Assembly (NCBI RefSeq): GCF_003334355.1
Contig: NZ_QOWP01000005.1
Direction: 5' to 3' (one strand)
DNA length: 64,000 nt
From: Escherichia coli
GTDB lineage: Bacteria; Pseudomonadota; Gammaproteobacteria; Enterobacterales; Enterobacteriaceae
Of this stretch, positions 11,208-34,398 are shown piece by piece (position 1 is the first letter of the stretch; each line of letters begins with the position of its first letter). Position numbers and translations under genes: made by a program. The notes under the pieces are model-generated. The model ran no database searches. It was not told the origin of the DNA and saw only the letters and a list, made by a program, of their open reading frames with translations.

Positions 11208-12482
11208 TTAACCCAGTAACGTGCGCAAATGCGCGGCTACGCTATCCTGCGCAACTGCCGTTTGCTCACCAGAGCGCAAATCCTTCACTACTGCTGTGCC
11301 GTTAGCCACTTCAGACTCACCCAGCACCACAGCAACGCGGGCACCCCATTTATCAGCACGGGCAAACTGTTTCTTAAAGTTGCCGCCGCCGTGGTTGGTC
11401 ATCAATTTCACGCCCGGTAATTCATCACGCAGATGCTCAGCTAATGCCATAGCCGCAGATTGTGTATCAGCACCTGAAGCCACCAGGTATATATCGACAA
11501 CAGGATCGGCTTTAAATTCCGGATTAACGGCCTGTACTAACAATACAAGACGTTCGAGGCCCATCGCAAAACCGACAGCCGGCGTTGCACGACCGCCCAG
11601 TTGTTCCACAAGACCGTCATAACGACCGCCTGCACACACGGTGCCCTGGGAGCCGAGACTGTTAGTCACCCACTCGAAAACGGTACGGTTATAGTAATCC
11701 AGACCACGCACCAGACGCTGGTTTACGGTGTAAGCGATCCCCGCGCTCTCAAGCAGTTTGCACAGACCGGCAAAATGCTCACGAGATTCCTCGTCCAGAT
11801 AATCGCCTAATGCCGGAGCGTCGTTGAGAAGCGCCTGCACTTCTGGATTTTTTGAATCCAGCACGCGCAGCGGGTTAGTGTACATGCGGCGTTTGCAGTC
11901 TTCGTCCAGCTTTTCTTTATGCTGCTCAAGGAATGCCACCAGCGCATCGCGGTAATTGGCGCGTGCTTCCAGCGAACCGATAGAGTTCAGCTCAAGAGTT
12001 ACGTGCTCGGAAATACCCAGCGCGCGCCACCAGCGGGCAGTGAGCATAATCAGTTCAGCGTCGATATCCGGACCTTGCAGACCGAAAACTTCGCAGCCCA
12101 ACTGATGGAACTGACGATAACGCCCTTTCTGCGGACGCTCGTGACGGAACATCGGCCCGATATACCACAGACGCTGTTCCTGATTGTACAGAAGACCATG
12201 CTCGATGCCGGCGCGTACACAGCCCGCCGTCCCTTCAGGGCGCAGAGTCAGGCTGTCGCCATTGCGATCCTCAAAGGTGTACATCTCTTTTTCAACCACG
12301 TCGGTGACTTCACCAATCGCACGTTTGAATAGCGGGGTCTGCTCTACAATCGGCAAGCGGATTTCACTGTAACCGTAGCTGCCGAGCACGTTTTTCAGTG
12401 TGCCTTCAATGCGCTGCCAGATGGCCGTTTCGCCAGGCAGGTAATCGTTCATGCCGCGAATGGCTTGAATGTTTTTTGCCAC
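11208..12482 (-). CDS. hisS: histidine--tRNA ligase
   Basis: ORF track 424 aa (GTG start), [30 protein letters not shown]... Confidence 0.97.
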
Positions 12483-12501
12483 GTTTATTCTCTTTCTGAA
12501 T

Positions 12502-12592
12502 ATAAAAATGAACCCTCAACGCTTCCCTCAATGTTTCGGGAGCTATGCGGGTTCAATCATACACGGGAAGCGAGGCGCTTCCCATCACGTTA
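12502..12592 (-). ncRNA. sroE: SroE-type sRNA / ispG 3'-UTR element
   Basis: 110-bp ispG-hisS spacer on the minus strand contains a long hairpin (GAACCC...GGGTTC, about 12510..12554) followed by a U-run; SroE is recalled to map to the gcpE(ispG)-hisS spacer; exact ends not determinable here. Confidence 0.5.
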
Positions 12593-13711
12593 TTATTTTT
12601 CAACCTGCTGAACGTCAATTCGACGCGCTTCGTCCAGCTGACTGGCTTTCGCACGAATGCGTGCTTCCAGCTGGTCGATCATATCGTTGTTGTCCAGACG
12701 GTCTTTGCGCACGCCATCTTCATAGAGGCCGCTTTTCTTGTTGCCGCCGGTGACGCCGAGTGTAGAAACCAGCGCCTCACCTGGGCCATTCACCACGCAG
12801 CCGATAATCGAAACGTCCATCGGAGTGATGATATCTTCCAGGCGTTGCTCCAGCGCGTTAACCGTACCGATAACATCAAATTCCTGACGCGAACAGGTCG
12901 GGCAGGCGATGAAGTTGATCCCGCGCGAACGGATACGCAGCGATTTCAAAATATCGAAACCGACTTTGATCTCTTCGACCGGATCGGCCGCCAGTGATAC
13001 GCGCAGCGTGTCGCCGATGCCTTCAGACAGCAGCAGACCTAAACCAATGGCGGATTTTACTGCCCCGCTGCGTGCACCACCGGCTTCGGTGATCCCCAGA
13101 TGCAGCGGCTGATCGATCTGTTTTGCCAGCAAACGATAAGACTCAACAGCGAGGAAGACGTCAGACGCTTTCACGCTGACTTTGAACTGATCGAAGTTCA
13201 GGCGATCGAGATGATCAACATGGCGCATGGCGGATTCCAGCAACGCCTGCGGCGTCGGTTCGCCATACTTTTCTTGCAGATCTTTTTCCAGCGATCCGGC
13301 GTTAACGCCAATACGGATCGGAATGTTTTTATCGCGCGCACAGTCAACCACCATGCGAATACGCTCTTCATTACCGATATTGCCAGGGTTAATACGCAGA
13401 CAATCGACGCCGTATTCCGCTACTTTCAGTGCAATGCGATAGTCGAAGTGGATGTCAGCCACCAGCGGCACGTTAACCTGCTGTTTGATGAGTTTGAACG
13501 CTTCTGCCGCGTCCATCGTCGGTACGGATACACGGACGATATCAGCGCCAACGCGTTCCAGCGCCTTGATTTGATTGACCGTTGCTTCGACGTCTGTCGT
13601 ACGCGTATTGGTCATGGACTGTACGGCGATGGGAGCACCATCGCCAATCGGCACATTCCCAACGTAAATACGTGTTGATTTTCTACGTTGAATTGGAGCC
13701 TGGTTATGCAT
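12593..13711 (-). CDS. ispG: 4-hydroxy-3-methylbut-2-enyl diphosphate synthase (IspG/GcpE)
   Basis: ORF track 372 aa, [36 protein letters not shown]... Confidence 0.97.
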
Positions 13712-25397: not shown

Positions 25398-25587
25398 GCA
25401 AAAGAGAGTAATTATTGTTTATTTAGCGTATTATCGACACCGGCCCTTTCCGCCGTGTTCGGTAATAAAATAACCTGGCTTATTAGTCCGAATTCAGACA
25501 AATATAAACAAATCCTGCTCAAAATTAAAAATTCTAACCGGTAAAAGATATTACTTAAACATGTAAATTCACTTTCCTTTAAAAAAC

Positions 25588-25616
25588 AAAAAACCGCCAA
25601 AATCAGGCGGTTTTTT
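25588..25616. terminator. bidirectional intrinsic terminator (second copy)
   Basis: AAAAAACCGCCAAAATCAGGCGGTTTTTT. Confidence 0.75.
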
Positions 25617-25684
25617 GTTGCTGGTCCGGTTCGCGGCCTTTCCAGCAGGTTGTATTACCGTAGTAATGCAAGCGCGTCTCAGCG
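25588..25684 (-). ncRNA. candidate ~100-nt sRNA, copy 2 (TimR-like antitoxin candidate), divergent from the ryfA-like transcript
   Basis: minus-strand TTGACA-N17-GAGTAT promoter (25691..25719), terminator at 25588..25616; contains GGAAAGGCCGC. Confidence 0.4.
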
Positions 25685-25719: not shown

Positions 25720-25808
25720 GCAAAAGAGAGTTATTATTGTTCTGTTAGTGTATTATCCACTGCGGCCCTTTCCGCCGTCTCGCAAACGGGCGCTGGCTTT
25801 AGGAAAGG

Positions 25809-25883
25809 ATGTTCCGTGGCCGTAAATGCAGGTGTTTCACAGCGCTTGCTATCGCGGCAATATCGCCAGTGGTGCTGTCGTGA
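25809..25883 (+). CDS. small ORF 1, 24 aa (MFRGRKCRCFTALAIAAISPVVLS), hypothetical membrane peptide
   Basis: AGGAAAGG directly upstream of ATG; hydrophobic; below ORF-track size cutoff; an upstream CCCTTTCC could sequester the SD. Confidence 0.3.
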   Translation: MFRGRKCRCFTALAIAAISPVVLS

Positions 25884-25907
25884 TGCGGTCTTCGCATGGA
25901 CCGCACA

Positions 25908-26033
25908 ATGAAGATACGGTGCTTTTGTATCGTACTTATTGTTTCTGGTGCGCTGTTAACCGAGGTAAATAATAACCGGAGTCTCTCCGGCGATAATTTA
26001 CTGGTGGTTAACAACCTTCAGAGCAGCAAGTAA
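25908..26033 (+). CDS. small ORF 2, 41 aa (MKIRCFCIVLIVSGALLTEVNNNRSLSGDNLLVVNNLQSSK), candidate type I toxin-like peptide
   Basis: same frame as ORF 1, separated by a TGA and 4 codons; alternative ATG at 25896 gives 45 aa; about 15-residue hydrophobic N-terminal segment; no strong SD. Confidence 0.4.
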   Translation: MKIRCFCIVLIVSGALLTEVNNNRSLSGDNLLVVNNLQSSK

Positions 26034-26063
26034 GCCCGAATGCCGCCCTTTGGGCGGCATATT

Positions 26064-26840
26064 TTAGATTATCCGATTCTGTTTAAAGTCACGCAAAAAA
26101 CCACCCCAGCGACGTTCATAGAATGGCGCAATATGTTCGGTAATAAAGTGGCTAATTCCTTTTTCCCCTTTTTTCACCTGACAAATATCGATTGGTTCAT
26201 CGCCAGGTAATGTATCGGTCGCTACACTTCCCGTCGCCTGAATAATTTCTTCGATATCACCATCGGCTTCAATGCCAATAAGTAAATTAGGCTGTGCCTC
26301 TTCGTTCTCTTTAATTGAACAAATAAAAGCACGCTTCACCGGCTTAATGGTTTTAAATAAGGTGGTGAGTGAATCAATCATTTGTGCTGGCGGCTCTGCG
26401 ACTTCCGATAATATCAGCGATTCACCGCCTTCCAGGATTTCCTGGCTGCTCAGCGGATTTCCCTCTTCACCAATCAACAAACTGATTTCACGCGGCATAA
26501 ATTCTTTACCGGTTGGCAGTTTGGCATTAAGGAAGAGCGTTTCGCCAAGTGTCATCTCAAACAGCGTGCGAACGGGCATTACGACAAATGCCTGTTCGTC
26601 TTCAACCGCCTGTTGAAGTGCTTCTAACGAGGTGAAAAAAGGAATGACGCTGGTGCCGTCTTCTTTTTCCCAGTGCTGTAAATCAAGCGCGCTATCTTCA
26701 ACCACAGCCTCGCCCTGCGCCGCCGTACCAGGCACCCAGACGGTGGATTCCAGTAGAGTACGGAAAAAGGCCGGGCGGTGCGCCGGTTCAGTTGCTGCTT
26801 TTTCCAGCAGGTCTTCAAGTTCGTTTTTTGTTTCGGACAT
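26064..26840 (-). CDS. sseB: SseB (enhanced serine sensitivity protein)
   Basis: ORF track frame; ATG at 26840 (MSETKNELEDLLEKAATEPAHRPAFF...); ORF-track start at 26849 is a GTG 3 codons upstream. Confidence 0.88.
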   Translation of the reverse strand: MSETKNELEDLLEKAATEPAHRPAFFRTLLESTVWVPGTAAQGEAVVEDSALDLQHWEKEDGTSVIPFFTSLEALQQAVEDEQAFVVMPVRTLFEMTLGETLFLNAKLPTGKEFMPREISLLIGEEGNPLSSQEILEGGESLILSEVAEPPAQMIDSLTTLFKTIKPVKRAFICSIKENEEAQPNLLIGIEADGDIEEIIQATGSVATDTLPGDEPIDICQVKKGEKGISHFITEHIAPFYERRWGGFLRDFKQNRII

Positions 26841-33318: not shown

Positions 33319-33558
33319 TGCTCTATAAACTCCGTACATCACTCAATGCAAGGAATCAGGCTACCGGCTGGATGTACGACCGTGTTTACGGAACGCGATA
33401 CGCCCCGGCCTGATTCTAATATCTTGTTATCTTTAACCTAACTGTTTCGGGTTTCAGCAAGTTGACAAACTTACGAATCTCCGGGAGCTTACATAAGTAA
33501 GTGACCGGAGTGAGTATGTGCAGTCAACGCAGATGCAACACGAAACAGGACGGTTAAA

Positions 33559-34223: not shown

Positions 34224-34398
<175 letters not shown>

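Follow-up and report, generated by a model that had tools for sequence, protein, structure and literature searches.

The SroE locus between ispG and hisS

The window analysed here is a 64,000-nt stretch of Escherichia coli DNA in which ispG is followed by hisS on the minus strand. All features of the spacer described below are on this strand and, except where coordinates of K-12 or of an individual locus are stated, positions are those of the window. According to the ORF list, ispG ends with a TAA stop codon at 12593-12595, hisS begins with a GTG codon at 12480-12482, and 12483-12592 is exactly the 110-nt gap from stop to start. A cmscan search matched the 92 nt at 12502-12593 to the Rfam family sroE (RF00371) with 114.6 bits and an E-value of 6.9e-28, covering model positions 1-92 of 92; the gathering score of this family is 51 bits. 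In the curated K-12 record NC_000913.3, the ncRNA sroE (b4761) is annotated at 2640595-2640686 between hisS and ispG. SroE is annotated to begin at the last base of the ispG TAA (12593), and the two genes overlap at 2640686. Both in the window ORFs and in the K-12 annotation the element is flanked by ispG (gcpE) and hisS on the same strand. The spacer of the window differs from that of K-12 by one base, and the stretch was found in 5426 of 5426 complete E. coli genomes; records annotated by PGAP leave the sroE locus blank. The ispG-hisS spacer is the known, catalogued SroE locus of E. coli. SroE was reportedly discovered in a 2003 RNomics screen by Vogel and colleagues.

A reading of this DNA from sequence only had called the spacer SroE-type, which is borne out by the full-length RF00371 match and by b4761 at the homologous K-12 position. 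It had also let the element overlap the translation initiation region of hisS. This does not hold, as SroE ends at 12502 and both the Shine-Dalgarno-like AAGAGA of hisS (12489-12494) and the GTG codon lie 3′ of that end. A 41-aa ORF with a TTG start at 12406-12531 was rejected as a gene, since it overlaps hisS out of frame. Elsewhere in the window, Rfam matches above the gathering score were ryfA (25762-26065, plus strand), IS128 (25422-25630, plus strand), GlmY (63018-63165, minus strand), the iscRS stability element (33320-33429, minus strand) and naRNA4 (34275-34346, minus strand).

Two hairpins and a U-run

Folded as a 113-nt RNA, the spacer reached -42.3 kcal/mol, compared with -23.1 ± 3.6 kcal/mol for 200 dinucleotide shuffles, none of which folded as well (0/200, z = -5.28). 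Two hairpins account for the fold, and the same two are present in the consensus structure of RF00371. Hairpin 1, GGGAAGCG-CCU-CGCUUCCC (12565-12583), starts 9 nt past the ispG stop codon. Hairpin 2 (12509-12555) has an outer stem UGAACCC/GGGUUCA, with arms at 12555-12549 and 12515-12509, that encloses an inner hairpin differing by lineage. Flush 3′ of hairpin 2 is the U-run UUUUUAU (12502-12508), in which the annotated 3′ end of SroE falls at 12502; from there to the hisS GTG it is 19 nt. A G+C-containing stem followed directly by a U-run is the geometry of an intrinsic terminator, and it is kept in 25 of 26 species. A consensus promoter and terminator scan of the spacer called none at threshold; hairpin 2 was missed because the simple terminator scan accepted only loops of 3-8 nt.

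The sequence-only reading had described a structured 110-bp spacer that contains an ispG 3′ UTR and terminator. Its coordinates were exact, the structure is confirmed by the shuffle test, and the terminator reading agrees with an annotated SroE 3′ end in a U-run 3′ of a terminator-type hairpin. It had also placed one long hairpin and a U-run about 20 nt before the GTG; the hairpin with its U-run and the distance stand, but there are two hairpins rather than one.

Two other explanations of hairpin 1 were considered. A dispersed REP element, as tabulated by RepRanger, was rejected, since hairpin 1 has no second copy in the 64-kb window. A 10-codon ORF on the minus strand at 12553-12585 (ATG GGA AGC GCC TCG CTT CCC GTG TAT GAT TGA) runs over hairpin 1 and is probably no gene; many genera have CTG, TTG or another triplet in place of its ATG.

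A hisS promoter within SroE

Supplementary Data 2 of the SMRT-Cappable-seq study lists a hisS-yfgM-bamB transcript with the coordinate 2640641 on the reverse strand (PMC6131387). We read this coordinate column as the transcript start because the rodZ entries in it fall 81-160 nt upstream of rodZ. Using another 5′-triphosphate enrichment, Kim 2012 reported a start at 2638663 (v2 coordinates), filed under 'sroE' and lying 45 nt inside it, for which the upstream sequence ends in ...GTGTATGATTGAACCCG / ...CGTGTATGATTGAACCCG (PMC3415461). The two coordinates denote the same G, because their offset of 1978 equals the offset of the sroE annotation between the two genome versions. Mapped from K-12 to the window, this start lies at 12548, 7 nt past a TATGAT hexamer and directly past the 5′ arm of hairpin 2. 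The hexamer (12556-12561) is in the linker between hairpins 1 and 2 and shows no variation among the 25 aligned SroE-type spacers (columns T35-T40). A 5′-triphosphate start with a -10 hexamer 5-9 nt upstream is what is expected of a sigma-70 promoter. Our own promoter scan placed a candidate -35, TGGGAA (12579-12584), inside the 5′ arm of hairpin 1 and 17 nt from the -10. This candidate matches the consensus at only 3/6 positions and falls below the threshold of the consensus scan, which is why that scan calls no promoter. The hisS 5′ UTR that starts from the spacer promoter is 66 nt long (12483-12548) and does not contain the 5′ arm of hairpin 2. The start was mapped experimentally in E. coli K-12, and its positions in other genera are extrapolated from there.

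Further transcripts reach hisS from upstream. Read-through transcripts ispG-hisS-yfgM and rodZ-ispG-hisS are listed in the SMRT-Cappable-seq data (PMC6131387), and Kim 2012 assigned to hisS a start that lies within ispG, 377 nt before hisS (PMC3415461); the v2 coordinate of the latter, 2638974, corresponds to about 12859 in the window. The earlier suggestion that hisS depends on read-through or on a promoter inside ispG was right in that both routes exist, but it overlooked the start at 12548 within SroE. The TSS tables hold the starts at 12548 and within ispG and none at the SroE 5′ end (12593), and SroE is treated in the literature as processed from a longer transcript (PMC8313858).

A single stretch of DNA serves ispG as 3′ UTR and probably as partial terminator, is the source of SroE, and provides hisS with a promoter and leader.

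Read-through and promoter-started transcripts

How efficiently RNA from ispG ends at hairpin 2 can be judged from the published RNA ends. The SMRT-Cappable-seq transcript table contains no transcript that ends 3′ of ispG (PMC6131387). The Term-seq tables of Adams 2021 contain no 3′ end within 2640580-2640619; the 3′ ends that they give nearby are 2640283 and 2640434 (within hisS) and 2641247 (within ispG). Taken together, the two tables indicate that termination at hairpin 2 was at best partial under those conditions, and in vivo it looks inefficient. SroE could accordingly be only a minor product of the locus, or a leftover of decay that has been trimmed. The two 3′ ends within hisS are strong ones, 141 nt (2640434, about 12341 in the window) and 292 nt (2640283, about 12190) past the hisS start. 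The former was scored as not Rho-dependent by Term-seq, and the sequence upstream of it shows nothing that resembles a terminator.

The position of the promoter start relative to hairpin 2 bears on what the two kinds of RNA can form. In each of the 26 SroE-type spacers we placed a start at the position homologous to that of E. coli and compared the RNA beginning there with the read-through RNA. A stem flush to the U-run was formed in 25 of the 26 read-through RNAs, whereas only 2 of the 26 RNAs from the homologous start formed one; the mean folding energies were -18.6 and -8.2 kcal/mol, respectively. For RNA started at 12548, the residual inner hairpin ends at least 8 nt short of the U-run. 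The leader together with the start region of hisS (12548-12440, 109 nt) folded to -21.4 kcal/mol (z = -0.83), no more structured than its shuffles. Sequestration of the hisS Shine-Dalgarno sequence in the mapped-start leader was rejected, as the fold is no better than shuffles. The spacing from TATGAT to (T)GA(A/G)CCC differs by no more than 1 base among the spacers, and the interior of hairpin 2 ranges from 7 to 36 nt.

We propose the following model. In RNA from the ispG side, hairpin 1 would form after the stop codon, and hairpin 2 with the U-run would act as an intrinsic, partial terminator; such RNA has both arms of hairpin 2 and can terminate. Transcripts ending at hairpin 2 would then lose their 5′ part up to about the stop codon, leaving the 92-nt SroE. 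Read as DNA, the element would form the hisS promoter, with the putative -35 TGGGAA in hairpin 1, the -10 TATGAT in the linker and the start at G12548. RNA begun at 12548 should be unable to form the stem that abuts the U-run, and polymerase should run on into hisS-yfgM-bamB. The start position may thereby let hisS transcripts escape termination, as the folding predictions suggest. That the sroE locus plays this dual role, ispG 3′ UTR, partial terminator and source of SroE on the one hand and hisS promoter on the other, is the reading that we prefer, with a probability of roughly 0.7.

A stronger version of the model may be considered. SroE and the hisS mRNA share 47 nt (12548-12502), which means that SroE could act as a decoy of the hisS leader. 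The notion that the promoter inside the terminator is a selected insulation device, and that SroE could in addition be a decoy for factors that bind the hisS leader, is speculative, and we regard it as improbable. If true, a decoy SroE would couple ispG transcription to hisS expression.

Conservation among relatives

The comparative set consisted of 80 loci, one genome per species, from Enterobacterales, Vibrionales, Aeromonadales and Alteromonadales. ispG is directly upstream of hisS in all 80, and hisS starts with GTG in 78 of the 80 gamma-proteobacterial loci, from Escherichia to Aeromonas and the Alteromonadales. In the numbering of the individual loci (L003-L082) this codon is at 1201-1203. 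The retention of GTG points to long-standing selection on a weak or regulated initiation of hisS. Spacer lengths run from 13 to 437 nt. At 24-50 nt, most spacers of Vibrio are too short for an SroE-like element; several of them are only 24-26 nt (L065, L071, L081 and L082 among these), implying that ispG and hisS are co-transcribed there. At the other end, spacers of 215-437 nt are found in three Yersinia loci (L035, L039, L042), Plesiomonas (L061) and Photorhabdus caribbeanensis (L066), and presumably arose through insertions; one of the Yersinia spacers (L039, 862-1055) has a weak match to Vibrio RNA AS5 (26 bits, E = 0.25).

Of the 80 loci, 26 gave an Rfam sroE match, and 22 of these scored no lower than the gathering score; all 26 belong to the Enterobacteriaceae sensu stricto, and the remaining 54 loci had no match to sroE. 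In the alignment of 25 SroE-type spacers (A1), the invariant blocks are TGGGAAGC, GCTTCC-CGTGTATGAT(T)GAACCC, GGGTT..TTTTT.TA and AGAGA..AACGTG. The U-run columns T88-T92 are invariant in A1, and the AGAGA of the Shine-Dalgarno region is nearly invariant in both alignments A1 and A2. The sequence of hairpin 1 is nearly invariant across the Enterobacteriaceae as well, whereas the interior of hairpin 2 is free in sequence and is only a 5-nt loop in Enterobacter. Two Pseudocitrobacter spacers of 184-185 nt (L006, 1016-1200; L009, 1017-1200) carry an insertion of about 75 nt in the loop of hairpin 1 with a long hairpin of its own. The Rfam score is down to 34-37 bits in these spacers and TGGGAA is shifted away from TATGAT; the insertion may be a small mobile repeat.

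Whether the structure itself is under selection was approached from the stems and from the hairpin-2 interiors. All 7 pairs of hairpin 1 are 100% paired in the 25 sequences, with one compensatory change from G-C to U-A, and the outer stem of hairpin 2 is 94.7% paired. This one compensatory pair was equalled by 21 of 500 shuffles. Since the outer stems hardly vary, covariation is uninformative there, and conservation of structure is inseparable from conservation at the DNA level for the outer stems. The variable interiors of hairpin 2 fold better than their own shuffles, with a mean z of -1.67 and 12 of 24 at z < -1.64. This shuffle test provides moderate evidence that the long hairpin is under selection.

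Origin of the element

Outside the SroE-type spacers, a near-consensus promoter TTGAAN-18-TATAAT or a close variant is found in Serratia, Rahnella, Yersinia, Pectobacterium, Brenneria, Dickeya, Hafnia and Edwardsiella, and also in Photorhabdus, Xenorhabdus, Morganella and Aeromonas. In most of them its -10 ends 34-40 nt before hisS, and it is farther away in Dickeya and in the Yersinia loci with long spacers. Start positions in these non-SroE genera are predictions. The alignment brings out a block, (C)GGGTTCATTTTT...AGAGAA...ACGTG, that is common to the SroE-type spacers and to those with TTGAAN-18-TATAAT. Just upstream of the block the non-SroE genera have CTATAATC, and the Enterobacteriaceae have GCGTTGAG, CCCTGAG, TTCTTT and the like instead. 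This replacement suggests that the proximal promoter was lost in the Enterobacteriaceae and that the hisS promoter is now about 40 nt farther upstream. With the shift the leader would have grown longer, and what had been the start region would now form the 3′ arm of hairpin 2 together with the U-run. On this comparison, the SroE family would have arisen in the Enterobacteriaceae together with the upstream shift of the hisS promoter.

The arrangement of a promoter within a hairpin has predicted counterparts among the relatives. Among 24 non-SroE spacers of other Enterobacterales, 13 have the -10 within a terminator-like hairpin and the predicted start past its 5′ arm (Serratia plymuthica, Rahnella, Pectobacterium, Brenneria and the Pantoea group). 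The rest of these 24 spacers lack a hairpin adjoining the T-run, which suggests that the T-run is conserved independently of a hairpin, as a component of the hisS start region. Erwinia and Rosenbergiella (L044, L054, L056-L058) have spacers of 53-62 nt that have kept only a GC-rich hairpin after ispG, and in Rosenbergiella the promoter scan gave only a weak promoter-like match, TGGGCA/TAGCAT.

Function of SroE and alternative readings

A stable SroE transcript of about 90 nt has been reported in K-12, as relayed by a paper that cites the original screen (PMC3632133). SroE was detected in all conditions of a later study, with a level that was flat across nutrient conditions (PMC12266141). Mihailovic et al. 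called it uncharacterised; nine of ten predicted targets showed no binding in EMSA, and one, ligB, bound weakly (PMC6172242). Its overexpression caused no phenotype in biofilm, motility or fimbriae (98 ± 10%; PMC4606813). These papers give no demonstrated base-pairing target of SroE, with nine candidates negative and one weak.

The alternative that survives best takes the species of about 90 nt for a functionless, nuclease-resistant remnant of ispG mRNA decay that is retained between the two stable hairpins; transcription would then not terminate at hairpin 2. The lack of a listed Term-seq 3′ end at the U-run, the dominance of read-through in the long-read table and the lack of a known phenotype or validated target all agree with it. 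The annotated 3′ end, however, lies within a U-run that directly follows a 7-bp G+C-containing stem, an arrangement that fits intrinsic termination and not 3′ trimming, and the stem and U-run are kept in 25 of 26 species though the interior varies freely. We consider a mere decay remnant unlikely.

According to a second alternative, SroE is mainly a trans-acting, Hfq-associated sRNA derived from the 3′ UTR, with the invariant, single-stranded linker GUGUAUGAUU as its seed and only a chance overlap with the promoter. A terminator hairpin with a U-tail is typical of Hfq ligands, the conserved unpaired linker resembles a seed, ligB provides one weak partner in vitro, and SroE was among the Hfq-associated sRNAs of nitrogen-starved E. 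coli (PMC12539622). But the level of SroE changes merely 1.75-fold in a Klebsiella delta-hfq strain and stays the same across nutrient conditions, and neither the EMSA results nor the overexpression experiments speak for regulation in trans. The invariance of the linker, moreover, is fully accounted for by a -10 hexamer with a mapped start 7 nt downstream. We infer that the linker is so strongly conserved on account of the promoter and not as the seed of an sRNA, and a primarily trans-acting role is, in our judgement, quite unlikely.

In Salmonella, SroE was scored as 'required' by TraDIS, and a T-box-like leader of hisS was put forward as a guess (Barquist et al. 2013, PMC3632133). A sensory leader or attenuator acting in cis on hisS, be it T-box-like or an autoregulatory operator, that adjusts read-through into hisS to the charging of tRNA-His, as those authors hypothesised, would suit the constant association of the region with the 5′ side of the essential hisS, its 'required' status and the terminator-like hairpin upstream of hisS, but is very unlikely: a T-box or riboswitch leader was rejected because sroE is the sole Rfam match at E ≤ 10 and no T-box, leader or riboswitch family appears; the interior of hairpin 2, where a specifier site would have to be, is hypervariable and shrinks to the 5-nt loop in Enterobacter; transcripts from the mapped start are without the terminator stem, hence there is nothing to attenuate; the leader from that start is not significantly structured (z = -0.83); and A1 contains no conserved leader ORF.

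For the preferred reading, in which the sroE locus serves both ispG and hisS, the meaning is chiefly one of annotation. SroE is counted as an orphan sRNA, yet its most conserved, seed-like stretch is the -10 hexamer of the essential hisS. A promoter inside SroE would explain both the conservation and the 'required' status in TraDIS without any function of the RNA. As the element was already known, what we add is the modest point that the hisS -10 is its most conserved segment and that the family probably arose along with a promoter shift in the Enterobacteriaceae.

Comparison with known systems

The element is SroE itself (RF00371, b4761), with the same locus, the 92-nt length, the two-hairpin structure and the flanking ispG and hisS, differing by one base from K-12. 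The database entry treats it as an sRNA gene, and the internal hisS start is listed under 'sroE' in the TSS tables. The T-box leaders of Gram-positive aminoacyl-tRNA synthetase genes resemble it as structured RNAs with a terminator hairpin before a synthetase gene; unlike them, SroE gives no T-box match, has neither a conserved specifier nor a conserved antiterminator, varies in its interior, and carries the promoter inside the element and not upstream of it.

CpxQ and SroC, processed (type II) sRNAs from 3′ UTRs, have defined targets and seeds. Like them, SroE forms the 3′-terminal part of an mRNA and has the terminator in common with it, and likewise no start is listed at its 5′ end and it is described as processed (PMC8313858). 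Unlike CpxQ and SroC, SroE is without a validated target, and it also contains the promoter of the downstream gene.

The rpsU-dnaG-rpoD operon, with an internal terminator and promoters, is an example of promoters in or shortly before the intergenic terminators of compact operons. The ispG-hisS spacer is like it in combining partial termination between two genes with an internal promoter for the downstream one. It is unlike rpsU-dnaG-rpoD in that the start is directly past the 5′ arm of the terminator stem, and we know of no explicit description of such a layout for ispG-hisS. With the start in this position, one and the same U-run would be a terminator for RNA coming from ispG and plain leader for hisS RNA, which would make the SroE locus a compact case of a terminator for upstream transcripts that becomes ordinary leader for a promoter nested within it.
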